Notes under the pieces: generated by a model
Told to the model about the DNA's origin: nothing
The model's database searches: none
What the model saw: only the letters and a program-made list of their open reading frames with translations
Part shown: positions 4,847 through 47,977 of the stretch, piece after piece
Layout of the letters: the number at the start of each line of letters is the position of its first letter
Position numbering within the stretch: the stretch's first letter is position 1
NCBI GenBank assembly: GCA_032718475.1
Contig: JAUCBJ010006610.1
Span: 64,932-128,931 of the forward strand
Reading direction: 5' to 3'
Origin: Nemertoderma westbladi
Taxonomy: Eukaryota; Animalia; Xenacoelomorpha
Length of the DNA stretch: 64,000 bases
Translations under genes and position numbers: made by a program

Positions 4847-4980
4847 TGGGGGCTGCCGCCCCCAAACCCCCGCTTCTGTTGTTGGGGGCTACCGCCCCCA
4901 CACCCCCGCTTCTTTTCTTGGGGGCTGCCGCCCCCAAACCCCCGCTTCTTTTCTTGGGGGTTATCGCCCCCAGACCCCGG
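4847..4980. repeat. GC-rich ~36-bp tandem repeat (GGGGGCTGCCGCCCCCAAACCCCCGCTTC), about 4 copies
   Basis: Directly visible; each unit contains a GGGGGC/GCCCCC hairpin. Confidence 0.8.
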
Positions 4981-5112
4981 TATTTCCCTGAGTGCCCGTG
5001 GTGAAAGACTTAAGACCACTTTGAAATATTTAATTCATGTTTGTATCATCAGATAATAAATTGACTAAGCCTAAAGTAGGAGCTGTATTGAATGTTAACC
5101 AATTTAATATAT

Positions 5113-10804: not shown

Positions 10805-11490
10805 TCTATCTCTAATATCTATTTTTTCTCAATGTATTTGTTGTATTTCTCCTCTAAAACATTGAGAAAAAAATTGCAATAAATTTTTTTCGCAATGTTT
10901 TTTTTCTTAATGTTTTTTTCTCAATGTTTTCGTCTTGAAGTCTGAGTTTGGCTTGTCTTTACATTATAGGCCTATCACAATGAACCTAATAATACCAGTA
11001 TAGTGCATTGCCCAGACTCCATGTGCACTTTCAAAATGCTGAAATTTAGTATTTGAAATATGCATGGTAAGCCTATAGCGTACCGTACGCTCGTACGCAC
11101 AGTGTATAATGTTGCTGACTGGTCTGCCGGTTACACGGACAGTTTATCGACCTATTATTAATGGTGTACAATCTGATACTATACACTGTGCGTACGGTAC
11201 GCTATAGGCCTACCATGCATATTTAAAATACTAAATTTCAGCATTTTGAAAGTGCACATGGAGTCTGGGTAATGCACTATACTGGTATTATTAGGTTCAT
11301 TGTGATAGGCCTATAATGTAAAGACAAGCCAAACTCAGACTTCAAGACGAAAACATTGAGAAAAAAAACATTGAGAAAAAAACATTGAGAAAAAAAACAT
11401 TGCGAAAAAAATTTATTGCAATTTTTTTATCAATGTTTTAGAGGTGAAATAAAACAAATACATTGAGAAAAAATAGATATTAGAGATAGA
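10805..11490. mobile_element. ~690-bp foldback palindrome (MITE-like)
   Basis: 10805-~11110 is the near-perfect reverse complement of ~11180-11490; no clear target duplication. Confidence 0.8.
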
Positions 11491-13719: not shown

Positions 13720-13754
13720 CCCATGAGGATGTAAGATGAGATGAGATATCATGT

Positions 13755-22500: not shown

Positions 22501-25410
22501 CTTGTGTACGGTAATTGAAACCATAAACAAGCAACATGTGTACGTTAATTGAGACAACAAACAAGCAATGTGTGTACGTTAATTGAGACAACAAACAAGC
22601 AATGTGTAACACCACAAACAAGCAACTTGTGTACGGTAATTGAAACCATAAACAAGCAACATGTGTACGTTAATTGAGACAACAAACAAGCAATGTGTAA
22701 CACCACAAACAAGCAACTTGTGTACGGTAATTGAAACCATAAACAAGCAACATGTGTACGGTAATTGAGACCACAAACAAGCAATGTGTAAGAACACAAA
22801 CAAGCAATGTGTAAGACCACAAACAAGCAACTTGTGTACGGTAATTGAAACCATAAACAAGCAACATGTGTACGTTAATTGAGACCATAAACAAGCAACA
22901 TGTGTACGTTAATTGAGACCACACACAAGCAATGTGTAATAACACACACAGGCAACGTGTGTACTTTAATTGAGACCACACACAAGCAATGTGTAAGAAC
23001 ACACACAAGCAATGTGTAAGACCACAATCAGGCAACGTGTGTATGGTAATTGAAACCATAAACAAGCAACATGTGTACGTTAATTGAGACAACAAACAAG
23101 CAATGTGTAACACCACAAACAAGCAACTTGTGTACGGTAATTGAAACCATAAACAAGCAACATGTGTACGGTAATTGAGACCACAAACAAGCAACATGTG
23201 TACGTTAATTGAGACAACAAACAAGCAATGTGTAACACCACAAACAAGCAACTTGTGTACGGTAATTGAAACCATAAACAAGCAACATGTGTACGGTAAT
23301 TGAGACAACAAACAAGCAATGTGTAACACCACAAACAAGCAACTTGTGTACGGTAATTGAAACCATAAACAAGCAACATGTGTACGTTAATTGAGACAAC
23401 AAACAAGCAATGTGTAACACCACAAACAAGCAACTTGTGTACGGTAATTGAAACCATAAACAAGCAACATGTGTACGGTAATTGAGACCACAAACAAGCA
23501 ATGTGTAACACCACAAACAAGCAATGTGTAACACCACAAACAAGCAATGTGTAACACCACAAACAAGCAATGTGTAAGACCACAATCAGGCAACGTGTGT
23601 ATGGTAATTGAAACCATAAACAAGCAACATGTGTACGTTAATTGAGACCACACACAAGCAATGTGTAAGAACACACACAAGCAGCATGTGTACGGTAATT
23701 GAAACCATAAACAAGCAACATGTGTACGGTAATTGAGACCACAAACAAGCAACATGTGTAAGACCACAAACAAGCAATGTGTAAGACCACAATCAGGCAA
23801 CGTGTGTATGGTAATTGAAACCATAAACAAGCAACATGTGTACGTTAATTGAGACCACACACAAGCAATGTGTAAGAACACACACAAGCAACATGTGTAC
23901 GGTAATTGAAACCATAAACAAGCAACATGTGTACGTTAATTGAGACAACAAACAAGCAATGTGTAACACCACAAACAAGCAACTTGTGTACGGTAATTGA
24001 AACCATAAACAAGCAACATGTGTACGGTAATTGAGACAACAAACAAGCAATGTGTAACACCACAAACAAGCAACTTGTGTACGGTAATTGAAACCATAAA
24101 CAAGCAACATGTGTACGGTAATTGAGACAACAAACAAGCAATGTGTAACACCACAAACAAGCAACTTGTGTACGGTAATTGAAACCATAAACAAGCAACA
24201 TGTGTACGGTAATTGAGACAACAAACAAGCAATGTGTAACACCACAAACAAGCAACTTGTGTACGGTAATTGAAACCATAAACAAGCAACATGTGTACGT
24301 TAATTGAGACAACAAACAAGCAATGTGTAACACCACAAACAAGCAACTTGTGTACGGTAATTGAAACCATAAACAAGCAACATGTGTACGGTAATTGAGA
24401 CCACAAACAAGCAATGTGTAACACCACAAACAAGCAATGTGTAACACCACAAACAAGCAATGTGTAACACCACAAACAAGCAATGTGTAAGACCACAATC
24501 AGGCAACGTGTGTATGGTAATTGAAACCATAAACAAGCAACATGTGTACGTTAATTGAGACAACAAACAAGCAATGTGTAACACCACAAACAAGCAACAT
24601 GTGTACGGTAATTGAGACCACAAACAAGCAATGTGTAACACCACAAACAAGCAATGTGTAACACCACAAACAAGCAATGTGTAACACCACAAACAAGCAA
24701 TGTGTAAGACCACAATCAGGCAACGTGTGTATGGTAATTGAAACCATAAACAAGCAACATGTGTACGTTAATTGAGACAACAAACAAGTAATGTGTAAGA
24801 CCACAAACATGTATTGTGTGTACGTTAATAGGGACCATAAACAAGCAACATGTGTACGGTAATTGAGACAACAAACAAGCAATGTGTAACACCACAAACA
24901 AGCAACTTGTGTACGGTAATTGAAACCATAAACAAGCAACATGTGTACGGTAATTGAGACAACAAACAAGCAATGTGTAACACCACAAACAAGCAACTTG
25001 TGTACGGTAATTGAAACCATAAACAAGCAACATGTGTACGTTAATTGAGACAACAAACAAGCAATGTGTAACACCACAAACAAGCAACTTGTGTACGGTA
25101 ATTGAAACCATAAACAAGCAACATGTGTACGGTAATTGAGACCACAAACAAGCAATGTGTAACACCACAAACAAGCAATGTGTAACACCACAAACAAGCA
25201 ATGTGTAACACCACAAACAAGCAATGTGTAAGACCACAATCAGGCAACGTGTGTATGGTAATTGAAACCATAAACAAGCAACATGTGTACGGTAATTGAA
25301 ACCATAAACAAGCAACATGTGTACGTTAATTGAGACAACAAACAAGTAATGTGTAAGACCACAAACATGTATTGTGTGTACGTTAATAGGGACCAAAAAC
25401 AAGCGTGCTT
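19525..25410. repeat. ~5.9-kb complex satellite built from related 34-bp and 23-bp modules
   Basis: Recurring GTGTACGGTAATTGAAACCATAAACAAGCAACAT and GTGTAAGACCACACACAAGCAAT variants in higher-order blocks; lies in a collagen intron. Confidence 0.95.
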
Positions 25411-27754: not shown

Positions 27755-28276
27755 TTGAAAAATATCGAGACATGAAAAATATCGAGAGTAAAAATAACGC
27801 GAGTAAAAATATCGAGTGTTGAAAAATATCGATAATATCGAGAGTTCAAAAAATATCGAGAGTAAAAATATCGAGAGTAAAAATATCGAGAGTAAAAATA
27901 TCGAGAGTAAAAATATCGAGAGTAAAAATATCGAGAGTAAAAATATCGAGAGTAAAAATATCGAGTGTTGAAAAATATCGAGAGTAAAAATATCGAGTGT
28001 TGAAAAATATCGAGAGTAAAAATATCGAGAGTAAAAATATCGAGTGTTGAAAATTATCGAGAGTAAAAATATTGAGAGTAAAAATATCGAGAGTAAAAAT
28101 ATCGAGTGTTGAAAAATATCGAGAGTAAAAATATCGAGTGTTGAAAAATATCGAGAGTAAAAATATTGAGTGTTGAAAAATATCGAGAGTAAAAATATCG
28201 AGTGTTGAAAAATATCGAGAGTAAAAATATCGAGAGTAAAAATATCGAGAGTAAAAATATCGAGAGTAAAAATATC
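27755..28276. repeat. 15/17-bp minisatellite (GAGAGTAAAAATATC / GAGTGTTGAAAAATATC)
   Basis: About 30 directly visible copies. Confidence 0.95.
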
Positions 28277-28550
28277 GATGACTTAGGAGTACTCTCAGAA
28301 TCACCAGAGGGAGCCCAACGGCTCCTCAGCTCATTAGAACATGCTGCTTCTAGTGTTGGTCTTTATATTAACTCCAGAAAGACCAAAATTTTGACAGTTA
28401 ACTTTGAAAGTCCTCAGAAAGTCTCTGATCGGATGAGCATAAGCTCAAAAGATGGTATGCTTGAGCATGTGGATGACTTCTGTTACCTGGGATCATGGTT
28501 CCGGAAGTCAGGTGAGGACCTTCGAATACGTAAGGGAAAGGCATGGGCAG
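28277..28550 (+). mobile_element. 5'-truncated RTE LINE, left part (target of the BEL insertion)
   Basis: DDLGVLSES...GLYINSRKTK...VDDFCYLGSW...RIRKGKAWA; continues in frame at 47478 as ALNRLSRIWKS. Confidence 0.9.
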
Positions 28551-29752
28551 TGTACGCGCTTTTGAAGACCTTTAGCAGTTTAACCTGCCAAAATTTATAT
28601 GTCTTTTGGTTTATAAATAGACTTTAGTAAATGACAAGTATTTAATACCAATAAACACAACATTAGCCGAAGCCAGCCTAGTGCGCGTCCATTCACCCGC
28701 TGGATATACCCGGGAGACTGGATTCGGATGGGGCTTAGATTTTATTATTGCAGTGTAAGCTTACTGTATTATTCGATTGATCGTTAATAAATAATTTCTG
28801 ACGAGTATTATTCACTTTCGGGAAATATTAACAGTTCCTTTAGGACGTGGCGCTCTATCTAGGTAAACAGAGATATGACTTATACTAAACACAACTGTAA
28901 GACTGTAAGGCTTATGACTCACGTATGAGGCGCATTCTTTAGGAAATGCTTAGTTATCAGCCACAATCATGCACACTACCGGTACCACACAATACTGCAC
29001 ACTAATCTGCCGACCGTCAATGAATTTTATCATACATAAAGAGAACAGCAATTGACTCATGTAGTGCCTATCAAATAGCATTAAATTCACTACAAACCAC
29101 GATAATATAAGTCGCAATCGCTATATGTAACCTGTCTCTCTAACCTGTAGTGTATCAAGAAAATTGGGAAATTTGGGTTATTTATCGATGTTCTCCAAAT
29201 AATAATATTCAACCAACTGATACAAATAATGACAACAGTAAAAAGCATTAAGACGGTAGGTTAAGATTATAACAATATAAGATTGTACCGCTGCGCTACT
29301 GCGCTGATAAGACTGATAACAGTTATACGCTCTATAATCTAAGCCTACTAATGTTTCTTTTAAAGTCTGAAACAAATTGACTCCAGAGCCGGTGTTCTTG
29401 GCCTAGATAGAAACAACAAAACTATAACACAGAAAACTATAAGACTGAACACTCCTAGCACGATCTGTAGAATATCTCCACATCGACAGTAAAAATCGCT
29501 CTGATTGGCTGTTAAGCTGAAACAAAGAACCATGTGTCCAACGGCCATTTCCATGCCAGCAACCAGCTGTTAGATGTCGTAATCTGAATCATCAAGGCTA
29601 CACTGTGCTAGAGGATTTGACGCATTGCGGGTTTTGTATCTTGCCATGTCCTCCAAAGCACACATAGAGAAAAACAACTTTTATGTCCATTAAAACACCC
29701 ACACGGTATTTTGCGGGCAAGGGGACTGATTATATCCGCAAAAGCTTTTACA
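28551..29752 (-). repeat. 3' LTR (1202 bp)
   Basis: Matches 46284-47472 except about 6 substitutions and one 13-bp indel by eye; AATAAA on minus strand near 28741. Confidence 0.97.
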
Positions 29753-29830
29753 CCGCTCCCAGAAAATGGGATTCAAGTCTATAAATATACAAAAATCACA
29801 GTTTCTAATATACGTAAATACTCTAAACAG

Positions 29831-31606
29831 TTAGTCTTTCTTGCGCGGACGGCATTTACGCAGTTTTTTAAAGCTGGCCAGAGTCCTTTTCTCTTTGGGG
29901 CGAGCCACTTTACAAGGAGGGCTATAACTCCTGGGTGAAGGGTGCAATATGATTGCATCACAGGGTGTAGGATTATGGTCGGTGTATCCGCCAGTCGAAG
30001 TGCCGGGCTGATTGACATCAACGTCGGGGGAGAGGGGTCTAACGGCCTTGAGAGCGCGTTTTAGGACGGCCGCTCTTACGGGTCCTTTACGAGTGGTCTG
30101 AACGAGAGCCGTGGGTGGACCATAGGCAGTCAGAAACTTCCTGGGTTTAATGGTTCTTTCCAACTCGCGTTCGCGGGCTCGGTATTCGTAAGGCCGTCGA
30201 TATACTTCCTGTAACTCGGGGTGTGAGTTAACAAATAAGTCTCCATAGTCCGGATCCTGACGGATAAAATTGATCAGGTTATATGAATGAAGGTCGCTAG
30301 GATTAACACTCCTGAGAAATTTGCGTACGAACTTGGTTGAAATACATTCTCCGACGCGCTTTAGTAGTTCGTAACTCGATATGCGTGATTTCTGTTCGAC
30401 AGAAGCGAATAGGTAAGGATGGAACGCATAAACTCCTTCGTAAGCGCGTCCAGGATAATAGCGATGGCGCGAATCACAATGTAAATCAGCGTTCGCTTCC
30501 CAAGCTCTGATGTAAGGTAGTGTGATTATTTCATCTACGCTTTCCAAATCGTGATTAAAAGGGCAATCGAAACTGGCGTGTCCCTTTAGTTGACAATGGT
30601 GACATTGAGTCATAAATTGAGGGCAAACCGCAAAAATATGCAAGTTATTGAGTCTGCAATATGCGCAATAAATTTCCATCGCCGGTTGTTCGTGGAAATA
30701 GGAACAGCGGACGTTTGTGTCCATGGGCGTATCATGGTCTCTCGATGCGCACAACCGACAACGTTGCCGAGAAACATAGTTGGCATGGCGATAATCGTAC
30801 GCAGTGAGACACTGTGGACCTTGATACCATTCTAGGATGTAATCGTTGTCGCTGTTCCGGGGCGCGATAGGCTGAATCTCCTCAGATTCTAGGCATATTG
30901 GTTCGTCTTCCCAGTGCATAGCTGAGGTGGGCGTGTCTGTCTCTTCAAGTGGACCTATTGTCTGAATTTCCACGACCGAATAACCTGTGGGGATTCGAGG
31001 TCTTTGTATAACAGAGGAGTGCAAGTTCGATATACAAATCTCTTTGAAAATGGCAAATCCAGCGCTATCTAACTTCTCTGCAGCTGAGTTTCTTAGGCTG
31101 AGCTTGGTCAAAGCGCGGTCTTTAAATTGGCTATCCACGTTGCGGAACGGGGTTAAAAATCGCCGGAAACATTCGAAGCGGATGAATTTATTATGTTCAT
31201 CTAGCTTAGTGAGTTTGGTCCCAAGTATTAATGGATGGGCGCGTATAGTACGACTGCACACATCGGCTAGCCAACCGGAAAGTGCGGTGTTTTCAAAGAT
31301 CGTGTAGATAGCTAAGGAGGGACGGAGTGGAACACTCATGAAGCTATACACGGCGCCAGTTGCGGTCAATGGTCCATCAAAGTATAATCGAGAATAATGG
31401 TCTCCGTATACTTGTTGATAGTTGATGGGATTTCCGACTTTGAAATTCCATCCGTATTCCTGAAAGGCAAGATGTCCGATGGAAGTTCGTTGCACCTTTG
31501 TAATGTTGCTAGACGTATTAGCATACATGGTGCGGAAGAAACCTCGACCTTCTGCCCAGGGAGCAATCAGCTGAGTATCAACGAAAGGGTATGGAATGTT
31601 CTCCAT
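29831..31606 (-). CDS. Retrotransposon-borne 591-aa protein with three CCHC-type zinc fingers and a basic C-terminus; function unknown
   Basis: Uninterrupted ORF between pol and PPT; CRLCASRDH-x9-C, CAYCRLNNLHIFAVC, CHHCQLKGHASFDC; tail KRTLASFKKLRKCRPRKKD. Confidence 0.8.
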   Translation of the reverse strand: MENIPYPFVDTQLIAPWAEGRGFFRTMYANTSSNITKVQRTSIGHLAFQEYGWNFKVGNPINYQQVYGDHYSRLYFDGPLTATGAVYSFMSVPLRPSLAIYTIFENTALSGWLADVCSRTIRAHPLILGTKLTKLDEHNKFIRFECFRRFLTPFRNVDSQFKDRALTKLSLRNSAAEKLDSAGFAIFKEICISNLHSSVIQRPRIPTGYSVVEIQTIGPLEETDTPTSAMHWEDEPICLESEEIQPIAPRNSDNDYILEWYQGPQCLTAYDYRHANYVSRQRCRLCASRDHDTPMDTNVRCSYFHEQPAMEIYCAYCRLNNLHIFAVCPQFMTQCHHCQLKGHASFDCPFNHDLESVDEIITLPYIRAWEANADLHCDSRHRYYPGRAYEGVYAFHPYLFASVEQKSRISSYELLKRVGECISTKFVRKFLRSVNPSDLHSYNLINFIRQDPDYGDLFVNSHPELQEVYRRPYEYRARERELERTIKPRKFLTAYGPPTALVQTTRKGPVRAAVLKRALKAVRPLSPDVDVNQPGTSTGGYTDHNPTPCDAIILHPSPRSYSPPCKVARPKEKRTLASFKKLRKCRPRKKD

Positions 31607-32498
31607 ATTCCCGTCGTATGCCTAATATGTCTTCCATTGATGGTAGTGGTAGAGAGCAGGGGAAGACCTATGTCGTATTCAGAAATATTCAGAAATACGA
31701 TCTCAGTTCTCAGTTGGAGGATTCAAACGTTCGAAGACTATCTCCAAATGAATTTATCCCTAGTGCGAGGAGGTAAACACCAGTTCAAGGATATGTTTGT
31801 CTCAGTTGTTCTACATAAGATTTATAACTCCAATCATTGAGGGAGGTGAACAACCAGATTTATGACACATAATGGTACCAGTTGTTCACAAACTATCCGC
31901 GTGTCCTTTCAGTCCTTGTTTGTATCACGGTTGTGGACTTAAGGAAATTATTGACGGTTGATTTTCTAATCAACAACGAGAGGGTGGAAGTTGATATCAT
32001 AAATATCAACAGAATGTGACATGGACAAGAGGTGCGGACACCAATATGAGCATCCAGATTAACAGTAAGGGATGGGAGGTTTAGTAAGAGGCGGTATGAT
32101 CAATACCACGATACGGCAATGATTGGTCGATCGTCTCCCAAAGCTCCGAGCGCGTTGGGAAGAGAAGGTGGGACGAAGTATGTTGTATTTTCAATAGCGA
32201 TGTATAGAGGGATAAAGGGAGTAAAGAGGAGGGAGGATATATGGTAGTATCCATAAGATACCACAATGGACATGTTTCTGTCACATCATCATTCATTCTT
32301 GCCCTTTAATTGTGACACTGATCACAATAATTACAGGAAAACGATGAAGGAAGAGAAAATTACAGCCTCCCGAAGGAGACCGCCCGCGAGCACCCGTGCC
32401 CCGGGGAAAAACTATTCACATCATGGACCCTGGACATTAACCCATGTCTCTTCTCCAGTGTTCTCCTCTATTTGTCTTTACAAGCTTTCTTCCACATT

Positions 32499-32876
32499 CT
32501 ATCTTTCGAGTTGTTTTCGAATAGAATTCTCGTGTTCCATTCTCGGTTCATCATGCCGACTCCGCTGGGTATGATATTTAAATAGAACCTTTTCCCTTTT
32601 GGTGTCTACATCGTCCATATCATGTAAATCGATAGGATGGCCGGTAGTTAGGAAGTCCATATACGTACCATTACGATTCGTATAGCGAGCGGTGAATTTT
32701 CGATAGTCCAATTCACGCGTAAGTCGCTCTTGGGACATCGGCGGTTCGATATAACGACCATCGTCCTCCGTAATGGTTGGATCGGCTTCACCGCGTATTA
32801 AGCTATCCACAAATGCTTGTAAAGGTAGAGTATATCGCTCCCTAATACCAAGATCATCTTCTATCAACTCCGTCAT
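32499..32876 (-). CDS. Putative 125-aa accessory ORF of the BEL element
   Basis: ATG-initiated, element-sense, charged globular-looking composition; no family recognised. Confidence 0.45.
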   Translation of the reverse strand: MTELIEDDLGIRERYTLPLQAFVDSLIRGEADPTITEDDGRYIEPPMSQERLTRELDYRKFTARYTNRNGTYMDFLTTGHPIDLHDMDDVDTKREKVLFKYHTQRSRHDEPRMEHENSIRKQLER

Positions 32877-34334
32877 ATCTGCTATCTGAGTTTATTAATA
32901 TCAAAATGAGTTTATGTTTAGGCTAGCGGGCGTCGCTGCCTACCTCTCGTTGCCCCCGGACAGTGGGATTCTCAGCGCCGATGTACCGTCGTCGCGGTGT
33001 TTACGCCAACATGTAGCAACAGCACGACAACGATAACCGGCACAAGTCACTCCACTGTCCGTCCCAAAGGCTTGGATCCACTCTAGGTTCTTTCTATAGG
33101 AGAGTTGGGTTACTTTCACAATTGCGACTAGCTACTGTAAACATACTTTAGCAGTAACATTCACCTATAAATGCATAAATTCCACACAACTGTCACCAAT
33201 TGTACACATACAGGCCATTTGTCCGTTAGTCAGTGCCTTCCAGAATGTCACGTTATTACTGTGTATCCTTGGATACTAACAGTGTGCTATGTATTCTCTA
33301 TGCTATGCAATGGGACAAGCTTTCTATTGTTCTTTTAACTTGCTTCTAATTCTAGCGTGGGTGTTGCTATGGTGACATTATGGAAAGCTAGCGGTAGAAT
33401 TAGGGTAATTCTCATGCATACAGATCTGGAATGCTATTTAATAGTAATTCTTTAATTGTCAATATCCTCTCTATGCATGATTTTATTAATTTTTATCGGC
33501 TATTGACTATATGTTGGAGATTCTCGCACTCTAATATACTCAAGAGGATGAATCTCCGCTCCCATGATCTATTAATTAATGGAATTTTGGGAATGTTATA
33601 AATTGCACAAAATGACAATTTATGAAATTCATTTAAAATATGAATTTAAATTTATTCCCGTGAATTTTATTATTTGATGTTAAAATTGACACAATTTTTA
33701 TTCCAGAGCATGTCTGGGGACTTTAACCACTGATTCTAGAATTTGTCTTTCAAGTATATCGGTGGGTGCCGCGATATCTTAATCGACTAGAATTACAGAT
33801 GGTCAAAAGGTTTAACAGATTTATTTGCGTTTTACGCTACTGTTATAGGGACATCACGCTACTATATGTATTATTATATATGGTATGAGAGCAATATCGC
33901 ACGAAGCAATGTCAGTGTGAAGAGGCAAGTCGTTTTCAAGGTCTACCCAGAGCTTGGTTTAGCCGAGACACGAGGATCTGAACTTTGCATTCCTAATACT
34001 CTGCCTACCAATAATACTTGAATATAGTAGTGGCTTTATTGTACTTTAATAAGTACGGACATTTCATCTTACTGTAGTCACGTATTTATAATATGATACG
34101 GACAGTAAGGAAAGAGAAAAAATTATTTCTCGCCGTCACACTAAATATATATTATATATATGTAATTACGTAATAAACACTAATATATTGCACTAATCTA
34201 CCAAATAATCTAAAATAACCTTCTACTAAATAAAATTGAATAAAAACGATTATAATAAAGTACATAATAATGTTCACATATAAAATATAATAAAATAGAT
34301 AAAATAATATAGTCATGCACCCACTCCAGACGTA

Positions 34335-37070
34335 TCACGTTGGGGAGTCCCTAGATGTTTGAGGAATTAGGGAGGTGGTCGTGGGAAGAGTGTCTTGCCT
34401 TCCATAGTTTCCGGAGAGTTCTCTGTCTCTTTCCAGTAAACATAAACGACCAACTGGGCGGTTGAGTTGTTGCGTCTCAAAGATTATGCCTGGCTTCTTG
34501 AAGTTACGCCGCATGACGACGAGTTCTACCGAGCGTACTAAACCATCATCCGAGATGTGAGTCTCGATGATACGACCTGTCTGCCACCGTTTACGTGGGA
34601 GGTCTGAATCTACAATAAGCACCATATCTCCGGCGCTGACGTTTTCTTGCTGCGCAAACCACTTAGTTCGAAGTTGTAGCGTGGGCAGATAATGTTTCTC
34701 GAAATGGTCAGCGAAACGACGGGATAGCAACTGCATAAGTTGCCAAGTTCGACGGCAGTATTCGTCTCCGTCGGTAATCTCCGATCGTGGGAGCATGGCT
34801 TAAGGTTTATTCAGTAGGAAGTGCGCGGGTGTTAGCGCTTCCAGGGAATCGGGACTCGATGAGACTGGCATAAGCGGTCTCTCGTTGAGATAGGCAGCTA
34901 TTTCCTCCATTAACGTCCGCAAAAGTTCGTCGGTGAGATACGCGCGGCATGGCACTATAAAGTGAAATGCGGTTTTGACACTTCTAATTAATCTCTCCCA
35001 ACTTCCTCCCCACCAAGGGGCGTCGGCGGCGTTGAAGGTCCAGCTAGACGCTGTTATCCTTAGCTGATCGTCCACCTGTCTTTGGTTCCAGTCCTTCACG
35101 TAAGCCTGGATTTCGTTGTTGGCACCAATGAAGTTCGTTCCCTTATCCGATCTCATGGTATTACTAGTCCCGAAGCGAGCGATCTGTCGGCGTAAACTTA
35201 AGACGAAGCTGTTGGTAGATAGATCGTTCACCATTATCGAGATGGATGGCTCTACAAGTCATGCATACGAAGATGACACACCATCTCTTGACTATAGTCC
35301 TAGCACGATATACTTCAATAGGGCCAAATAAATCTACACCAGTATTAGTAAAAGGTGGTTCATAGAAGCTTACTCGTTCCCTAGGTAATTCTGCCTCTCG
35401 CTGTGTTAAAGGCCTACTGAATGCTTTCCTACAGGGTATGCAGTTCCTAAGAACTTGGTTCAGAGCTCTACGGGGTTTATAAAAATAATAGCGAGTTCGG
35501 ATTTCGCTAAGAACTCGTTCTCTACCAGCATGATAAAGTTTGCTGTGAACATCTACAATCATCTTGATTTGTACTTCAAGATTTCTAATGAGTATGGGGA
35601 ATTTAGTGTCAAAGGATAATGGCGCATTGGTGAGCCTTCCTCCAACACGTATTAACCCATCTATCATTGTGCTAGAGAAGCGATCCCTTAAGCGCATCTG
35701 CGGATTTCTCAACAACAGGAAATACTTATCGGAATCTTCATAGCATTGCAGGAGTCTCAGTATCTGCTTATTGGTTTCTTCGTGCTCCTGGTAACTGATT
35801 TTCTCCTTTAGAAACCGGTCAGATGTCTTATATTTGGGTAAATTTTTAATAACATGAACTTGCGCAGATGTCAATGGAGCGGTATCACTAATTGTCTTCG
35901 TCCTGGAGTAGTGATGATGAAAACATCGCCTTAAATATATGACGGCTTTACAGAGCCGATTCCAGGAACTGTAGTGAAGCATTGCTCTCTGCAGCAGGGG
36001 TGAGATTCCTTGCGAGACGTCTGGTATTCCAGATTTCCAATCTCTGTCTCTAATTTCCATGACAGACTTATTTGTGGCGAGGGATTGTGGATCCGAAGCA
36101 TCGTTTCCGGAAGTATGTAATACAGATAGATCGATCGTCGGTTTAAATAACTTCGATTTACTCGCCCGGGTTTTAGGTTTGACTTTCTCCGCTCCCTTGG
36201 CTTGTCTAATCTCCGCCGTAGTAAGGTGAGGAGGCCATTCATCCTCTTCCTTACTCAGGAAGTCGGGTCCACCCAACCAGTCTGGAGTATCTATCAGTTC
36301 CTGTGGGGTTGCTCCCCTGGAGGCGATATCAGCTGGATTAATCGTACCAGGGCAATGTCTCCATTGATCTATCTTTGTGCGACTAAGAATAATAGCTACC
36401 CTGTTAGTAACAAAAACGCTGAACTGACAGACTTCATTGGTTATATACTCCAACACGAGTAAAGCGTCGGTCCAATAAACAGTTTTCTCCAGCGGATAGT
36501 CGATTTGTTCTGTTACGTTCCGGCCGATGGCTGTAGCGTATAAAGCCGCTTTTAACTCCGCTCGAGGAACCTTTAACTTGTTGTTAATCAATGCCTTAGA
36601 GGTAACCAAGGCGACTTTGATTCCATCCGGAGTTTCGACTCGCAGATATGCTACTATACCTATTCCCATGTCGCTGGCGTCTCCAAACACATGGAGTTGA
36701 TAGGAATATGTAGGAAGAACATGACCAAAATATGCACGGGAAATTACAAAGCTCTCGATGGCAGGTAGAGAATCTTCCCATTTCATCCACTTCTTTAACA
36801 GTTCTCCCTTAAGTGGATCGTCCCAGGAGTGGTTTTCAAGCCACATTTGTTGTACTAAACTCCGAGCAATCAATATAACTGGGCTAATAAATCCCAATGG
36901 GTCGAAATAAGTGCTCAGGATACTTAAACAAATCTGTTTGGTCCGAACTGGATTATCTCGCTGTTTTAGCTGAAAAAACAGGATATCTCTTTCAGTGTCC
37001 CACTTCAAGCCAAGCGTCTTGGTTTCTGGAAGATATTCCTTTATTAAGTCTAGGTCGTTCGTTCTTCTAT
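34335..37070 (-). pseudogene. pol: BEL/Pao pol 3' half: RNase H and integrase, disrupted
   Basis: YFDPLGF, LHVFGDAS, YWTD, HCPGTINPADIASRG, H-H-C-C, GVDLFGP, RSDKGTNF, APWWGGSWER, LTPAHFL; frameshift near 35236, in-frame TAA at 34800-34802. Confidence 0.92.
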
Positions 37071-38635
37071 TCGTTCTCTCATTATTTAAATACTGTTATC
37101 ATTAAGTTACAGTCAGCCAGTTAGAGCCCTATTAACTACTTATTTGCGTTGTTGAGAGCTTTAACCATTAAAACTCTTTTTTAAATATTTTAAGATTTTA
37201 ATTTAATTCGCCTTAACTTAAATAAATAAATATTTTTAATAATAATAAAAATACTACGGTACTTTAAAATGGAATTTGTTCTGTTATATTAGGTGTATTA
37301 TGTATTTTTGTGTACTATGTATTTTTTTTTTTTTTTTATTATATGATGAATATGATTGATACTAGGTGAATACTGAATAATACCACGGTATTTTGATTAG
37401 AGAGATTAATACTAGGGTATTTTGATACGGTATTTTGATTAGAGGTGAACACTAGACAATACTACGGTATTTTGATTTTGATTAGAGAGATTAATACTAG
37501 GCTATTTTGATACGGTATTTTGATTAGATGTGAACACTAGACAATACTACGGTATTTTGATTAGTGGTAAATATAATTAATGCTACAGTATTTTGAATAG
37601 AGGTGAACACTAGACAATACTACGGTATTTTGATTAGTGGTGAATATAATTAATGCTACAGTTTTTTGAATAGAGGTGAACACTAGACAATACTACGGTA
37701 TTTTGATTAGTGGTGAATATAATTAATGCTACAGTATTTTGAATAGAGGTGAACACTAGACAATACTACGGTATTTTGATTAGTGGTGAATATAATTAAT
37801 GCTACAGTATTTTGAATAGAGGTGAACACTAGACAATACTACGGTATTTTGATTAGTGGTGAATATAATTAATGCTACAGTATTTTGAATAGAGGTGAAC
37901 ACTAGACAATACTACGGTATTTTGATTAGTGGTGAATATAATTAATGCTACAGTATTTTGAATAGAGGTGAACACTAGACAATACTACGGTATTTTGATT
38001 AGTGGTGAATATAATTAATGCTACAGTATTTTGAATAGAGGTGAACACTAGACAATACTACGGTATTTTGATTAGTGGTGAATATAATTAATGCTACAGT
38101 ATTTTGAATAGATGTGAACATTAAATAATACTACGTCGTGGTTGTCTAACATCATATAATTATGTATTTTGATTAGACAGAGGTGAATATGATTACCACA
38201 GTATTTTGCTTAGAGATGAATATAAGTAATACTACAGTATTTTGTTTAGAGGTGAACATGATTAATACTGTACTACAGTATATTGAATAGTGATCAATAC
38301 TACGGCGATTAATACCAAATACCAGTATATTTCAACCGTATGTTATTATTTCGTCCAATTAATTTGCATATTACTGTATTATGACACTGTATATATTTTC
38401 ATGTTTTATTTTATCCATATGTAATTTTAAACGATTTTAAATTTAAGCTGCATAAATCATTTTAAGAGGGGACCTGCATGGAAACGAGTTCTATGAACTC
38501 ATGCAGTTATCCCCGTCAGAACATTTTATTAGATAACCTTTAACATATAAATGTATATTATGTATATGTTCTTATGTATATGTATTTCTGTGTATTTCAT
38601 GCGTTTCTGACAATAAACAACTTCAACTTCAACTT
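37071..38635 (+). mobile_element. 1.56-kb insertion in pol: non-coding 3' end of a non-LTR element carrying a 73-bp tandem array
   Basis: Interrupts IPVEDR / NDLDL..LPETKTLGLKW; about 8 copies of a 73-bp unit at ~37548-38130; ends AATAAACAACTTCAACTTCAACTT; imperfect duplication TTCG(T/G)TCTTCTA at both junctions. Confidence 0.75.
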
Positions 38636-41600
38636 CGGTCTTCTACCGGTATCGCTTCCAGAAACTCACGGGAGTTGCTGGTGAATTTCGTCAGTCGAAA
38701 TCCACCTCTTTTCAAACACTCTACCGTTCCTTTCGCGACATCAATGGCTTCTTCTACTGATGGAAGGGACTTTAAATTGTCGTCCATGTATATATCGCGC
38801 TTGATGTTATCTATCACCTCTTTGGAGAAGGCGTCTCGGTTGTCATTCGCAGTGGTCCGCACCACGGAGCAGGCGTTGGAAGGGCTTGATATGATCCCAA
38901 AAGCCTGGATGGTCATCCAGTACTCTACCGGTTTCTGGTTGAGATCTCCTTCAGGCCACCACAGAAATCTTAGGCTGTCTCTATCTCTATCCAGCGCCTT
39001 GACTTGTAAGAACATTCCTTCTATATCGGAGGCGAACGCGATGGAATATTGTCTTAATCTTAAAAGTATTCCCAACAAAGATTGGAGTAAGTTGGGTCCT
39101 GGTAACAACTCGGAATTGAGGGATTGGCCCATATATAGAGCGGAGCCATCGAATACAACTCGTACTTCATGGGGTTTACCGGGTTTGGGAACGTAATGAT
39201 GTGTTAAGTAATACGTTCTCTCAGTTACTGGTGTTCCTTCCGGTACTCGCTCCGCGTATCCTTTTGTAATAAATTTCTTCAACTTAGTTTGGTACATTTC
39301 TTTAGCTGAAGCATTAGCCGTAAGGCATCGATGTAATTGAGTGATTCTTTTCTCTGCCAAGGGTCTGTTATTTATAAATCTAGGTTCCTGTTTTCGAAAT
39401 GGTAGGCCGATTTCATATCTACCTTGATCTTTTAAAAAACGTGTAGTTGTTTCCTGGATTTGCTTGGCTCTTTCTTCTTCTATCGATAGGGCCTTATCGT
39501 ATGAATTGGGCTCTACCAATTCTTGAGTAAAGAATCGTATGGCGAGTTCGTCCCGAGTTCTAGCGTTGTAGCGCTCTATCTCATCATTTAGTTCGTCATT
39601 GTAATCAATGGGTCCCGATGGGCGAATCAGTTGACATAGGTTCACCTGGTTTTTCCAAGTTTTGTTTTCTGTAATTAGGTCGATTGTGTCTTCTTCATCG
39701 AAGAGTTGGTAGATGTCGTCATTATCTGAGGAGTATGGTGTTCCCTCAGTTAGTTCGTCCACCTCACTGCTCTCCACTTCCCAATCATTTACTTGGTATA
39801 TTCTTTCTTGTGGTAGTCTCTCTTTGAGAGTTCTGCGGGAAGGGCCAGTAAAGTACCAACCTACTCTAGTTCTTACCGCATAGGTTTGTAGTGGCTGCGG
39901 TTGAGCAGGCCATTTCTCCAATGTCTCGAGCGCCTCATGCGCGTTTTGGCCGATGAGTATTTGTACTCCAGGATAATCTGTCTGGAATCGAGGTATCTTA
40001 AGCTGTTGGATGCTCTCGTCCTCGTCCCAGTTATAAGGTTCTACTTGGGTAGTAGCGAAGTTCTTTATAGCCACCATTTTTACTGACCTTATACTTTGTG
40101 CTCCTGATTTATCCTGGGGGGTGGACAACGCACCTACATAGTAATCTGCCATTATGGTAGATTTCCAAACCTGCATAATTCCGGACATATTCAACTTAGT
40201 TTGGAATTTGGGTTGTCCAGCAAAGATATCTTCGGCTAGTTCTTGATCGATGAATGTTCCTGTGCTGCCGGAGTCAAGGAGGGCGTTCACTATGTAACTT
40301 TTGTTAGGACCGTGAACTCTTACCTGCACTACAGGAAATTCTCTGATTCCTATGTTGGAAGTTGGAGCTTTCCAAGATGGTTGTCTGTCAAAGGTAGTTG
40401 GGGGGAACTCATTGTCGGTGTCCTTTTCATAAGTAAGTGCTCGATACACCGCGGTATTTATTAGGTAACAGGATTCGTTGGCGTCGGAGAATTCGTCAGT
40501 ATAGAATCCTTCCATCTCAGACTCTTGATCAGTGTCATTTACATCACTGAATTGGACATGTAGTTCGGGCTCACTTACCTGACTCGGGTTGTTTCGTTCG
40601 AACTCACTGTGTAACAAGATGTGATGTTTCGCGCCGCACTTTGCACACTTTACGTCTGAGTAACAGGTTCGCCGTTGGTGTCCTGATCTGAGGCAATTAT
40701 AGCATAACTGCTTATCCCACATGACTTCACGTCTGTCTACAAGGGATTTCTTTAGGAATTCAGCACACGCACTCAAACGGTGGGGCCTGTCGCACAGCGC
40801 ACAGTTTGGTTTGATGTTACTCACTTTACCCTGGGTAACTTGATGCACTCTCGTTCTTTCTTCGGGCTTTCTTCGGTGCATTCTGTTAGGAGACTGAGGA
40901 GGAGTCTTGGCAACCTGTTCTCTCCTATCGTTGGTTCGAGCCTTGTATTTACTTACGTCTTTGGAGGTTTTGTTAACGTAGTAAAATTTGTCAGTGTCTT
41001 TTCCGCTGTCCTCTTCTTGAGAAGCTTGGCTTTCGCCATCGTCAGTGTAACACACTGGTGTTACTCTTCTCCTAGAAACGGGTTTCTCACTTACCTTATT
41101 TTCCGATGTTTTCTCTCTGGACTGCTTTATGAGTTGTAGTTTTACTTCACCATCTAAGAAGGACATGAGATCAGCCATGGTAGGGCCTCGTTGTTGCTGC
41201 TCATTCATATACAACACTTTCTTATCCCAGCGTGTACATACTCCACCCATGACCATGGAACTCTGATATTCATGAGACTTACCTAACCAGTCCAATTGTC
41301 TACAGATCTCTTGAATCTCATCGGAAAACTCTATAATCCCGCTACTAAGGAAGTTTCGGGGGGCTACTAATTTTGCATACAAATACTTAATTATGTTATC
41401 CTTGTTACCATACCTGATGTTTAATGTGTCCCAAACTTGTCTTAATCCATCTGGATGTCCAATAAACTTTAACGCCATTAACTTGGGAGGTCCTTCCAAG
41501 CACTTGATGAGGAATCTAAGTTTCTCTCCGTTAGATAGTACAGAGTTCTGTATGCTATCTTTGTAATATTCATTGAAAGGTAACCATTTCATCTCATCTC

Positions 41601-43932
41601 TATTGAATTTGACGATCTCTCCCACTTTGACCGCTTGGCGGGCTTCTGTTCTAGCCATCTGACGCGTGAAGCTTTCTTGGGCCATCGTGTTATTTAATAT
41701 CGAATTATCGGTATATGAATTTCTCGGATTATTATCAGGTCTATATGGAATATCATTAACAACAGGTTTATAATCACCCTTAATAGGGTTTGCTATAGGA
41801 GTTTCTACTTCACTAGCAGTATAGATGCGTGTAGGCTCCACACCTTGCGCATGTAATACTTCAGACCTAACAGGTTGACACAATGTTACTGGGGGTATTG
41901 GTATACCCCTTTGTATATTGACTAATTTGTCGCGTTCTAGCGCGATGCTTTGCTGCACTTCTTGCAATTCTGCCCTACTTTCCCTTACTGTTCCCTTAAG
42001 TTGGTGGACAGTCTCCTGCATCTGTCCGAGCAGGAGATTCATCCCTCGCCGTCCCTCCTCTACCCACTCGACCGCCGAAGCGGGAGTCGCCAACATTGTA
42101 GCGGGCCGATGCGGGACGACGGGAGACAAATCTTTGATTTCTCTCTCAGCTTCCAGGACCTGGATATTCTCATGGACTGTTCTACCGGGTACAGGCAGTG
42201 TAGTACTGTGTAAAGGGAATTTAGAGTTAAGCTCTGGAAGTACAGGGGTCTCTAGCACAGGAGTGGCTTTGGGAACGACAGGCCTAATTATTTCAGGCTC
42301 ATCAACTATTGTAGGGAGTCTTTTGACCTGAATAATTTGGTCTGTGGGTTCTGTACTACCTAAGTCTGTGCTAGCTAGTTGTCTTCTAACCGCTGGGGGC
42401 AAATCAGGCAATTTGTGACGGTGAGATGTTTTTCTACGCCTGCTTAGACAAGATCTATTTCCTCCGCCTTCAGGATCGGTGGTCTCGCCTTCCTCCAATG
42501 ATGTGTATCCCTGGCGTTTGGGAGTAGATCGTCTCATCATCTGCATTTGACTAGCAGTTAACTGTTTATTTATGTTGTCTTGCGTCTCTTGCAGATTTTC
42601 CAACTCCAGTTGGGTAGTCTCCTCAGACGCTCTCCATTCTGCTTCTGCCACTGCCTTTGCTGCCTTTCTTTCTGCTTCTGCTTCTGCCGCCGCTGCCTTT
42701 GCTGCCTTTCTTTCTGCTTCTACTTCTGCCATTGCCGCTGTTACTGCTGCTGCCTTTCGGTCCTCTATCCGTTTTTTCTTTACTTATTCTTCTTGGACTC
42801 TAGCGAGGCGGAGTTTTTCATCAAATTTAGCTTGGTTTGCAGCTAACATTTCCGCATCGATTGAGTCCAACACAAGCTTGGCTCCTTCACTATTGGGGCG
42901 AAGTCCAGCCAGTCGTCTCCTCAACTCTTCATCACCTAAGAAGCGTTGATAGTCTGACAGATAGATGTCGATGGCGTCTCGCGTTCGCGGTCTCTCTGCT
43001 GTCCCTTCGCTTTCCACTTGAGAAAGGGTGGCATCGGTTGGTTCCTCATAGGTTGGTCTCTCAGCCAGCTGGGATTTCCACTGGGCCGTTTCTTGTACTT
43101 TGAGACCTACCCGCTGGAACCAAGTCTTGACAGCAACCTGCGGCGACGTGTCCTGTCTTCTTTTGGAAGTTTCCTCAAAGGCTGATAGGATTAGTCTAAT
43201 GCGTAGGGTTCTTTCGCGTACTTGATATAGCAGCTCTTCCTGCTCTTGAGGTCCTTGGGGTTGTCGAAACAGTTGTTCTTCTAATCGCTCTAAGGAGCCG
43301 AAGAATCCCTGCACATATCCTGCTGCTGACCTCTTCCAAACAGCTGGATCCATCGTATCTTTAGTCACTCCCATCCTGTGTATGTCTTCCCAAGTAGCTT
43401 CGGACAAATCTAACGGGAGTCCGGGTCCGGGAAAGTTCCATTGTGACTCGACAATAGACATCAATTCTTCCCTGGCGTATCCCGCATAACTATCTTGGGT
43501 CGCTCGCTTACTTCTCGCCCAATCGACTTGGTGTTCCTCCACCGCAATCAATATAGTAGTTAGTACTGCGGCAGGAAGGGTGAGAAGGGGATCCGAGTAG
43601 GCCGTAGCCGCCATCTTCACTCCGCGTTCGGGGGTCAGCTCTACGGTATCCAAACTACTGGAGCTATCGGGTTGCTGGGAACGAGTTTCTTGACTAGGAT
43701 GTTGCTGCTGTTGGACAGCTGCTTCTTGGTTCCGTTTGACCTGGGCCCGAGTGCCGATGATAGACCTACGGTGTTGGATTAGCCTAGGGTCTGATACTAC
43801 TACTAGAGGGATGACCTTTCTTTCAGTAGGAGGTGAGCTGAACCCCTTTCTTAATTGCTCCACACTCCTATCTGTGTCACAGATGGTTGTATCGATTAGA
43901 CTGTCTGACAGGTTTTGCTGGGTGTCAGACAT
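38636..43932 (-). pseudogene. gag-pol: BEL/Pao gag-protease-RT reading frame with one premature stop
   Basis: ORFs 42784-43932 and 38629-42732 are in the same frame, separated by one TAA; three zinc knuckles, ALLDSGS protease, RVVFDGSA, SDIEGMFLQV, FGIISSP, YMDD. Confidence 0.95.
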
Positions 43933-45979
43933 GTTTATCTATACAGTTGAATGCTTACTGCTATAGTTACAGTTAAAGCAAGTCTAGTAATTCAGTATGA
44001 CCGTTGGCCTAGTACCGGTAATTTATTACAGTATATTAGAATACCGGTATACACTTATAATATATATAAGTATTGTAAACTAGGTTTGTCTCAGAATACC
44101 GGTATATAATTTTAACACAAATATATATAAATATACAATAGGCCTATCGTGAATACCGGTATACAGCCTACACTTATAGTATATAAGTATAATTCTGGAC
44201 TAGAATTAATTACAGAATACCGGTATAATTTCAGCCTAAATTTATAGAAATAAAGATAATAGGCCTATCGTAAATACCGGTATATCAATTATTTAAATAA
44301 TTGAATTTCTGAATTTTAAAGGTTACTTAGTTACTTTAACTTACTTTATTACCGTTATTTAAGCAGTAGTCCAACTGATATTGAGACCTAGTTGTTGTAT
44401 GGCAGGCCTACTATTTATAAATCGTTTGAGTTGATTTATAATATATATATACCCGTTTAAAATGGGTTTTGTCAATATTTGAAATAAATGTTATTATTTC
44501 TGGGGGAGTCACTACACAGAAGCAGTGCGCTCTCAGTGAAGTGCTACTTATTGGACACTAAAACAGATAATTCTAATTTACCTAAGTTACTTAATACTAC
44601 AAATTACGTACGATACGGGTGAGATTAATTCTCTAATTAAAACACAACAAAATATTACGTATGAAATTTTAGGGTAATTTTACAGGGAAACTACAAACCA
44701 GTCTAACAAAGGGTTAGAACTTCTGGTTATTACAACAGACAGGATACTACGGTATTTGAAAATAATAAGTAGTAGTAAATATGTTGCGCTGTCCAGATAG
44801 GAAAATACCACCGTCTGACGACCTATAGCCGTATCGCTATAGGTACTACGTTATGTATCACGGAGTGTTCCTACCTAGAAGTTAATTACCGCGGACTACC
44901 AGATCCAACGTGCCTATTAACCACTTTACAACACAATACACTGCCTACACACTAATTACTTTCGGAAAGCACTGTACACCAAACCCTAAATTAGGTACAA
45001 GTACTTATTAAAAACAGATAACTAGCAGTTAAATATACTTGAACAGTTAAAAGAACCACGGCATCTGCTGGAGTGACCGGAGCACAAAGTCACCAGTCTT
45101 TACCTACGCCAAGCAGCCCGTGTAGTACCGGGGTTAATTTAACTATAACGGTATGTGTAACAAGCACAATTACTGTAGGAATAAACTTGGGGACATGAAT
45201 GTTGCGAATAATCGCATAAACTCTGAATAATAAATATTACGCTACCCGTACAGAATACTCAAACAAAATACAAACCAAACGCTGGCAGACTACCATCAAG
45301 CCTAAATAAACTACAGTATGTGCAGATTCCGAAATGGTTAGTTAGTATGCGTTCTAACACGGTAGTACGACTTATTCTTTAGGAGGGGATTGACCTTACA
45401 GCTCTGGCTGCCCCAACTTACTAACTGGCACTTTATCAGACAAACTCTACACACGCAGCAATCTCTTCAGACCTAATAATAGCTAGACAACAATCCAGCC
45501 TACAAAATATCTGAGTAATAACTATTACGGTACCTGAACAGACCACACAAACAAACATAGGCTAAAACGCTGGCAGACTACTATCGAGCCTAAATAAACT
45601 ACAGTATATGCAGATTCCAAAATGGTTAGTTAGTATGCGTTCTAACACGGTAGTACGACTTATTCTTTAGGAGGGGGTTGACCTTACAGCTCTGGCTGCC
45701 CCAACTTACTAACTGGCACTTTATCGGACATACACTCTACATGCACTGCAATCCGTTCAGACCTAACAACAGTCAGAACAACAGTCCAGCCTACAAATTA
45801 TCTGTACAATCTGAGCAGGGTTACACGCCTTCTGCTCAATATTAACTTACACGTAAATAAAACTGACAGAAATAAGTAAACTATACAAAAGAATGACGGG
45901 TGATCAATCCCTATTCTCCTGACAGCCTACAATATACAATAGATCTCAATCGAAATAATACTAATGTACTTATACTGGA

Positions 45980-46225
45980 AGTACCGGTTAGGACAGTTGG
46001 GCCTACAGACCTACAGCAGTACCGGTTCAGGCAGTTAGGCCTACGGACCTACAGCAGTACCGGTTCAGGCAGTTAGGCCTACGGACCTACAGCAGTACCG
46101 ATTCTGGCAGTTGGGCCTACGGACCTACAGCAGTACCGATTCTGGCAGTTGGGCCTACGGACCTACAGCAGTACCGGTTCAAGCAGTTGGGCCTACGGAC
46201 CTACAGCAGTACCGGTTCAGGTTTA
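45980..46225. repeat. 38-bp tandem repeat in the BEL 5' leader, about 6 copies
   Basis: GGCAGTTGGGCCTACGGACCTACAGCAGTACCGGTTCA repeated. Confidence 0.9.
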
Positions 46226-46283
46226 CCGGTCGACCGGTACTTTCAACTTTATTGCTTACTGCAATAAAGAGTATAACTGTTAT

Positions 46284-47472
46284 TGTACGCGCTTTTGAAG
46301 ACCTTTAGCAGTTTAACCCGCCAAAATTTATATGTCTTTTGGTTTATAAATAGACTTTAGTAAATGACAAGTATTTAATACCAATAAACACAACATTAGC
46401 CGAAGCCAGCCTAGTGCGCATCCATTCACCCGCTGGATATACCCGGGAGACTGGATTCGGATGGGGCTTAGATTTTATTATTGCAGTGTAAGCTTACTGT
46501 ATTATTCGATTGATCGTTAATAAATAATTTCTGACGAGTATTATTCACTTTCGGGAAATATTAACAGTTCCTTTAGGACGTGGCGCTCTATCTAGGTAAA
46601 CAGAGATATGACTTATACTAAACACAACTGTAAGACTGTAAGGCTTATGACTCACGTATGAGGCGCATTCTTTAGGAAATGCTTAGTTATCAGCCACAAT
46701 CATGCACACTACCGGTACCACACAATACTGCACACTAATCTGCCGACCGTCAATGAATTTTATCATACATAAAGAGAACAGCAATTGACTCATGTAGTGC
46801 CTATCAAATAGCATTAAATTCACTACAAACCACGATAATATAAGTCGCAATCGCTATATGTAACCTGTCTCTATAACCTGTAGTGTATCAAGAAAATTGG
46901 GAAATTTGGGTTATTTATCGATGTTCTCCAAATAATAATATTCAACCAACTGATACAAATAATGACAACAGTAAAAAGCATTAAGACGGTAGGTTAAGAT
47001 TATAACAATATAAGATTGTACCGCTGCGCTACTGCGCTGATATTATACGCTCTATAATCTAAGCCTACTAATGTTTCTTCTAAAGTCTGAAACAAATTGA
47101 CTCCAGAGCCGGTGTTCTTGGCCTAGATAGAAACAACAAAACTATAACACAGAAAACTATAAGACTGAACACTCCTAGCACGATCTGTAGAATATCTCCA
47201 CATCGACAGTAAAAATCGCTCTGATTGGCTGTTAAGCTGAAACAAAGAACCATGTGTCCAACGGCCGTTTCCATGCCAGCAACCAGCTGTTAGATGTCGT
47301 AATCTGAATCATCAAGGCTACACTGTGCTAGAGGATTTGACGCATTGCGGGTTTTGTATCTTGCCATGTCCTCCAAAGCACACATAGAGAAAAACAACTT
47401 TTATGTCCGTTAAAACACCCACACGGTATTTTGCGGGCAAGGGGACTGATTATATCCGCAAAAGCTTTTACA
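46284..47472 (-). repeat. 5' LTR (1189 bp)
   Basis: Near-identical to 28551-29752; lacks AGACTGATAACAG after 47042. Confidence 0.97.
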
Positions 47473-47977
47473 GGCAGCCTTGAATAGGCTTTCCAGGATT
47501 TGGAAGTCACCAAGAATTAATCGGACACTTAAGGTCCGATTATTTAGAGCAGCAGTAGTTCCAGTACTCCTCTATGGGAGTCCATGCTGGGCTCTAACTG
47601 CTGAGGACACCAAATCTCTGGATGGCACATTCACAAGAATGCTACACTGGGTTCATTGTGTCAAGTACAATGCACATATCTCCAACCAGACACTATATAA
47701 CATTGGAGATGTCTCATTGGTTCCCCCAAGCTTGACACTAGAACAAAATCGCCTCTGCTTTGCAGGACATTGCTTTCGCCGTGAGGACCAGCCAGTGCAT
47801 AATCTTGTACTTTGGCAGCCTCATGGAGTGAATAAGCATGGTGGACAGCCCATGACTTTCTTGAGACGCATCTTAAAGGACACTGGCCTTGAAGATGCGG
47901 ATGATCTAGCAAATGTCATGGGTGATAGGGAGTTGTGGCGGTGCAATTTTGTCGATAAGCCAGCACAGCATTCTTAA
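47473..47977 (+). mobile_element. RTE LINE, right part (ORF C-terminus)
   Basis: LKVRLFRAAVVPVLLYGSPCWALT, RLCFAGHCFR, LVLWQP, DRELWR are typical RTE C-terminal motifs. Confidence 0.9.

Follow-up and report, generated by a model that had tools for sequence, protein, structure and literature searches.

How does a BEL/Pao retrotransposon start reverse transcription when no tRNA primer site follows its 5' LTR? The ICTV describes the Belpaoviridae as tRNA-primed elements whose replication is poorly understood (PMC8742986), with genomes that measure 4.2-10 kb and a primer site of 18 nt that fits tRNA-Arg or tRNA-Gly (PMC8742986). A locus of Nemertoderma westbladi raises this question. We analysed a window of 64,000 nt (contig JAUCBJ010006610.1, positions 64,932-128,931), and all coordinates, including those of a preliminary description of the same DNA, are window positions. 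Stranded features of the two elements discussed, E1 and E2, lie on the minus strand.

E1 (28551-47472) is an LTR retrotransposon of 18.9 kb with a broken coding region, delimited by its LTR pair, Pfam domains and target-site duplication. The 5' LTR (46284-47472, 1189 bp) and the 3' LTR (28551-29752, 1202 bp) both run from TG to CA, and the latter holds the intact self-complementary segment described below. They are 98.4% identical by self-BLAST and differ by six substitutions and a 13-nt gap in the 5' LTR at 47042/47043. The element is flanked by the 5-bp duplication GGCAG (28546-28550 and 47473-47477), and a polypurine tract (29753-29760) adjoins the 3' LTR. The gag-protease-RT frame (38629-43938) is split by a stop at 42784-42786, and the RNase H-integrase region (34335-37095) carries a frameshift near 35250; the 1.5 kb with tandem repeats that separate RT from this region include a 73-bp tandem array at 37356-38290. 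E1 is about twice as long as the upper size given by the ICTV. Its leader is 2.3 kb long and includes a 38-bp tandem array at 45942-46245, about 380 codons precede the recognisable gag, and 2.7 kb separate the integrase from an extra frame upstream of the 3' LTR (29831-31621). This frame of 596 codons has Cys/His knuckle-like motifs; it gave no significant Pfam match (zf-CCHC_3, E 0.49) and was not recognised as an envelope gene. Long satellite arrays lie outside the element, at 19584-25404 (23/34/57-bp units) and 27755-28280 (15/17-bp units).

The assignment of E1 to BEL/Pao, made in the preliminary description, was upheld by the Pfam domains of its frames (DUF1759, Peptidase_A17, Integrase_H2C2 and DUF5641) and by its colinearity in tblastn with the full-length relative P0001. 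The best RT relatives, coral and amphioxus proteins among them, are 43-46% identical, and the same Pfam set recurs in RT relatives that match most of the query with identities of up to 46%. The domain order is that of BEL/Pao, namely gag, protease, RT, RNase H and integrase, and the two TG..CA LTRs, the target-site duplication and the polypurine tract all agree with the BEL/Pao criteria. The 18-nt site for tRNA-Arg or tRNA-Gly that the ICTV lists among its criteria is absent from E1, and E1 is classed as BEL/Pao by protein homology. It sits on a long unresolved branch in quick RT trees, and two scans of viral contigs returned no relative.

At the primer-binding-site position of E1 (46271-46283, +1 after the LTR) there is no TGG, and none was found over the leader's first 200 nt, in agreement with the preliminary description. 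The complementarity of this site to the element's own LTR is real, and the exact 13-nt complement reported earlier was confirmed: the first 13 leader bases, counted from the first base past the terminal CA, are the exact complement of positions 425-437 of the 3' LTR (29316-29328), the candidate self-primer. Beyond one C-U mismatch the pairing resumes for six further pairs, one of them G-U (29330-29335), which brings the duplex to -20.6 kcal/mol. Across the window there are exactly two occurrences of the 13-mer, 29316-29328 (+) and 46271-46283 (-), with no further site at up to one mismatch. When the E1 LTR was shuffled with dinucleotides preserved and offsets 0-4 allowed, none of 3000 shuffles reached 13 nt, the maximum being 12. 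A window-wide shuffle reached the 13-mer in 6/100 cases, but this test is ill-suited since the pattern was drawn from the window itself. Under the Tf1-type rule, which asks for at least 10 nt complementary to the own LTR beginning 0-5 nt past it, the E1 3' LTR has 13 bp at offset 0.

In the predicted fold the pairs of this duplex have probabilities of 0.87-1.0. A hairpin with a 6-nt loop is predicted in U5, 20 nt before the LTR end (46304-46325), and a 9-bp hairpin immediately past the primer site (46247-46269) competes with the 6-bp extension. A partial two-strand fold predicted the central duplex and local hairpins for E1, and not the two flanking LTR-leader duplexes of the Tf1 'pretzel'. 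There was no Rfam match at 45900-47500, and ARAGORN found zero tRNAs within the window. The distance from the E1 segment to the LTR end is 765 nt, as against 44-216 nt in 16 relatives.

A second element allows the covariation of the two sites to be followed. E2, at the left end of the window, is related to E1, with blocks that are 65-79% identical. Its 5' LTR (7747-10181) is followed by a primer-binding-site position that likewise has no TGG (7737-7746), and the LTR segment complementary to that site (9716-9725) lies at the place homologous to the E1 segment. The two primer sites differ at 7/10 bases, and E2 pairs with its own LTR over 10 bases with nine Watson-Crick pairs and one G-U. Compared with the E1 duplex, six positions have changed on both sides and one has become G-U, so that site and LTR covary, with the reservation that a single indel, instead of independent events, may account for some of these changes. 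The own duplexes reach -20.6 (E1) and -11.1 (E2) kcal/mol, and the crossed ones -7.9 and -4.5 kcal/mol. A match of 10 was reached by 1/3000 E2 shuffles in a 50-nt window at offset 0 and by 6/300 with the position free, so that E2 alone is modest evidence; pair probabilities in its predicted duplex are 0.66-1.0. A U5 hairpin is predicted in E2 as well (7766-7785), and in both elements it stands about 20 nt before the LTR end with different stem letters and the pairing kept, while its loop covaries with primer-site bases 2-5.

The 5' LTR of E2 is split by a foldback element (8424-9671) with long inverted arms and internal 49-bp repeats; it sits 44 nt past the E2 segment and is flanked by a duplication of about 11 bp. 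An inverted-repeat insertion occupies part of the E2 leader (4546-7060), and a second foldback element (10805-11490) adjoins the LTR start. A small LTR element (12036-13722, minus strand) has 268-bp LTRs that are 98.5% alike and an integrase frame only; it too has no TGG after its 5' LTR, and an internal deletion is possible.

As relatives, 96 loci were drawn from an RT alignment (80 from metagenomes and 16 from genome bins) and every one was screened for LTRs. In 22 of the 96 a repeat ended within the contig, further ends came from BLAST between loci, and 19 representatives with defined LTR ends were kept. The 77 loci left out had undefined LTR ends, were near-copies of kept loci, or had unclear repeats; repeats that were not clear LTR ends occurred in L021, L060, L064 and L085. 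Both contiguous matches and splice junctions were tested. TGG stands in the first 12 nt in only one of the 19 relatives (L011).

Pairing of at least 10 nt with the own LTR was found in 16/19 relatives and in 5/402 unrelated cross-pairs; the offset had been widened post hoc from 0-2 to 0-4 and the acceptor rule relaxed by one pyrimidine, and the cross-pair control used this final rule. The count of pairing relatives overstates the number of independent cases, since L087/L090 and L004/L009/L052 are close kin. With E1 and E2 included, 17/21 elements reach 10 Watson-Crick pairs, E2 having seven in this count. In 13 of the 19 the match of 10-15 nt exists only once a canonical GT..AG junction is joined, and in three (L030, L037 and L088) it is contiguous over 10-11 nt; L073 is a 17th pairing relative, at offset 5, and L082 gave no resolved pairing. 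In each of the 17 resolved relatives the first pair falls 0-5 nt from the LTR end. Introns inside the LTR, with a canonical donor and a canonical acceptor, were recorded in L001, L004, L009, L020, L032, L041, L047, L052, L062, L072, L073, L084, L087 and L090, and taking out each of these 14 introns yields a complement of 10-15 bases to the primer site. The upstream exon of the spliced relatives contributes only 3-9 of the paired bases, no TATA word stands at a constant distance, and a poly(A) signal follows the primer in 14/16 relatives. Among the contiguous relatives, the duplex is predicted to fold in L030 and L037 and not in L088. A single clade of the four contiguous types was rejected (p-AU 1.3e-5), in a test whose group was set by primer type, though a first tree had been seen. 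The LTRs of L047 and L032 seem to end in TA rather than CA. Sixteen contigs filed under bacterial genome bins (L081-L096) encode BEL/Pao relatives, and they are most likely contamination from host animals.

Copies of the family in host sequencing runs bear on the same segment. In DNA runs of one organism label the E1 stretch has very high summed contig depth, a quantity that is not copy number. In X1, which may be the source sample, the depth is 1,181 at 29304-29307, 4,303 at 29308-29311, 63,948 at 29312-29315 and 118,037 at 29316-29319, with a peak of 343,052 in the region 29280-29380. The step recurs in X3 and X4, where loose ends lie at 29312-29315. Because the depth drops at the segment, the block shared by the family appears to stop at the predicted 3' end of the primer; it comprises the segment together with about 45 nt on its upstream side, and the cliff itself may stem from short indel-rich repeats directly past the segment. 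In one X3 contig (depth 8226) primer-site bases 1-11 are retained and the sequence diverges beyond them. Of the variant rows for the stretch the best-supported were considered, with 425 substitution rows and 144 indel rows beyond them, and an absence of rows at the primer site is given no weight. No RNA run was listed among those containing the stretch, and X5, which may be an RNA run, contributed no contig to the segment; neither result is informative about expression.

In the 5' LTR of the E1 copy in this window, the 13-nt gap removes the bases corresponding to positions 431-443 of the 3' LTR and with them the 3' half of the segment. The remaining duplex has -11.0 kcal/mol, and because of the gap this LTR falls short of the 10-bp minimum for a self-primer. 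As this LTR is the one that would supply the primer in cis, a primer from another copy would be needed. Of the seven differences between the E1 LTRs, three coincide with candidate functional sites in the 5' LTR, namely the segment gap at 47042/47043, a TATA-like word at 47080 and the U5 hairpin stem at 46319. We speculate that the gap, being confined to the 5' LTR, arose during plus-strand strong-stop synthesis, which templates the 5' LTR only, or after integration. The gap was not among nine indel rows, and there were zero substitution rows, for contigs on 29280-29380, which are about 60 nt long and so give weak evidence.

The transcript start is the weak point of the proposal. The preliminary description had pointed to a TATA-like word ahead of the segment (29357-29364), and this did not hold up: the word reads TTTAAAAG in the E1 3' LTR and TTTAGAAG in the 5' LTR, and TTTAAAAG has no counterpart in E2. 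Instead, TATA-like words common to E1 and E2 sit 37-50 nt downstream of the segment, in a 15-nt block (29266-29280, LTR 473-487) that is identical in E2 (8372-8386) and could be a competing promoter. A motif scan of E2 returned no TATA-like word upstream of its segment. If the 15-nt block were the sole promoter, the segment would lie in U3. In the available text on Tf2, a downstream start yields a non-replicating mRNA and an upstream start the self-priming RNA (PMC5341516). Since Tf2 uses both, two starts are possible in E1 and a downstream TATA is compatible with an upstream start. A candidate poly(A) signal, AATAAA, stands 570 nt past the segment (28741-28746), and an ATTAAA at 28641-28646.

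Taking these analyses together, the primer site of the E1 family pairs with its own LTR, and a Tf1-like self-primer at the RNA's 5' end is likely to replace the host tRNA. If variants in which the segment lies in U3 or the primer acts in trans are included, self-priming becomes highly probable. Judged from the sequences, self-priming as a putative family trait is well supported by the covariation in E2, by the pairing in 16/19 relatives and by the conservation that ends at the 3' end of the segment. This part of the preliminary proposal was supported, whereas its placing of the segment at the start of the transcript found no support in motif scans. In the likely Tf1-like course, a transcript whose start lies upstream of LTR position 425 would bring 425-437 into a duplex with the 13 bases past the LTR, and, as happens in Tf1, the RNase H of the element would cleave behind position 437. 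Synthesis would then continue from the released 3' end, beginning at the terminal CA and running through U5 and R, and strand transfer would proceed through R, by analogy to Tf1.

Other readings of the pairing have to be weighed against this one. The segment might lie in U3, in which case the primer would still be the element's own RNA and not a Tf1-like 5' end. The identical TATA-like block downstream of the segment in E1 and E2, with none upstream in E2, speaks for such a position, as do the spliced relatives with their few paired bases in the upstream exon and their TATA words at no constant distance; the gap in the 5' LTR would then be harmless. We nevertheless consider it unlikely, as a cut at the 3' U3 copy would presumably strip R from the molecule and require a second RNA, the available account of Tf2 pairs a downstream start with an upstream self-priming one (PMC5341516), and the block conserved in the family extends about 45 nt upstream of the segment. 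Slightly less likely still is that the pairing serves as a structural switch or end-to-end clamp and that the true primer is a tRNA fragment, piRNA or other small RNA. Half-tRNA primers are reported for Ty1/copia in the available text of PMC6317226, and the covariation of the U5 loop with primer-site bases 2-5 hints at alternative folds. Primer sites differ among families, however, and the LTR of each family tracks its own site; a host primer cannot follow such changes, which argues against tRNA fragments. Moreover, the complement of CCA is absent, and the onset of pairing 0-5 nt from the LTR end in 17/17 resolved relatives is the register that a primer needs.

A primer built by splicing within E1 itself (donor at LTR position 433, acceptor at 1168, 12 pairs at offset 1) is very improbable. 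The junction formally exists, 14 relatives are of the spliced type, and the E2 bases past the same AG covary with the E2 primer site. Against this, the donor agrees with U1 at 3/9 positions as compared with 5-7 in the best-scoring donors of relatives, and it fails the strict rule; at the donor E2 has AT, which is paired if the match is read as contiguous; the AG forms part of the covarying hairpin stem; and no poly(A) signal lies downstream of the acceptor, as opposed to the 14/16 relatives with a signal past the primer. On these four grounds a splice-built E1 primer was largely rejected and the contiguous reading preferred. Chance, helped by low GC and a near-palindromic 11-mer, is scarcely credible as the source of the E1 match. 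It is true that the first 11 bases are a near-palindrome and that one unrelated primer site matches the long AT-rich E1 LTR over 11 nt by chance, but no shuffle came to 13 nt, E2 covaries though it is not palindromic, and the relatives far exceed the cross-pairs (16/19 against 5/402).

A wider reading, which we put forward tentatively, at somewhat short of even chances, is that a wide branch of marine-invertebrate BEL/Pao elements has swapped tRNA priming for two interconvertible forms of self-priming. In the spliced form, removal of an LTR intron would assemble the primer, so that only spliced RNA would pair and the unspliced 3' copy would be protected. The contiguous form, that of E1 and E2, would have arisen more than once. 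Under the same reading the E1 gap would have come about when plus-strand synthesis slipped at the point of pairing between the primer, not yet detached, and the cDNA copied from it.

If self-priming is true, BEL/Pao would be the third self-priming LTR superfamily beside gypsy and copia, independence from host tRNA would have evolved again, in animals, and annotation that requires a tRNA site would overlook a large share of BEL/Pao diversity. The spliced form in relatives would make the onset of reverse transcription depend on host splicing. The family of E1 is present in high copy and its predicted cut site, LTR 437/438, is sharp, which makes the proposal directly testable.

The preliminary description knew of no account of self-priming in BEL/Pao, and we too found no publication on it in the literature listings and open texts covered; Repbase Reports, GyDB or subscription journals may contain one. 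In the accessible text of two BEL/Pao surveys there are zero matches for primer, PBS, tRNA or intron (PMC3118150) and for PBS, tRNA or priming (PMC554778). The accessible portion of PMC8220671 has at most a generic mention of a primer site and none of BEL/Pao self-priming, and such a mention is likewise absent from the accessible portions of PMC5443660 and PMC3601003, the single self-priming passage of the latter standing outside this statement. The likely mechanism is a known one, in a superfamily for which we found no published report.

The known systems resemble E1 in different respects. The Belpaoviridae share with it the same domains in the same order, the TG..CA LTRs, the polypurine tract and the target-site duplication, but have a tRNA-Arg or tRNA-Gly site and 4.2-10 kb (PMC8742986), whereas E1 has no such site and 18.9 kb. 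The survey of plant elements by Neumann et al. (2019), in its available text, gives self-priming for Tf1/sushi, Tcn1 and TAR only (PMC6317226). There, Tcn1 (gypsy) and TAR/Houba/Osr-1 (copia) are predicted self-primers under the same rule of at least 10 bp, 0-5 nt past the LTR (PMC6317226); the E1 3' LTR and E2, the latter with one G-U, conform to it, and the gapped E1 5' LTR does not. These elements belong to superfamilies other than the BEL/Pao of E1. The closest precedents, as far as the available texts go, are Tf1, Tf2 and Tj1 (PMC4600332, PMC5341516, bioRxiv 10.1101/2022.12.06.519325), in which, as in E1, the tRNA site is absent and the sequence after the 5' LTR is complementary to the element's own LTR. 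This Tf1/sushi group consists of Ty3/gypsy chromoviruses, while E1 is BEL/Pao by its Pao-type domains and homologues. E1 also differs from the group in that 765 nt separate its segment from the LTR end and the flanking 'pretzel' duplexes are not predicted, and in that for most of its relatives the match comes together at a splice junction.
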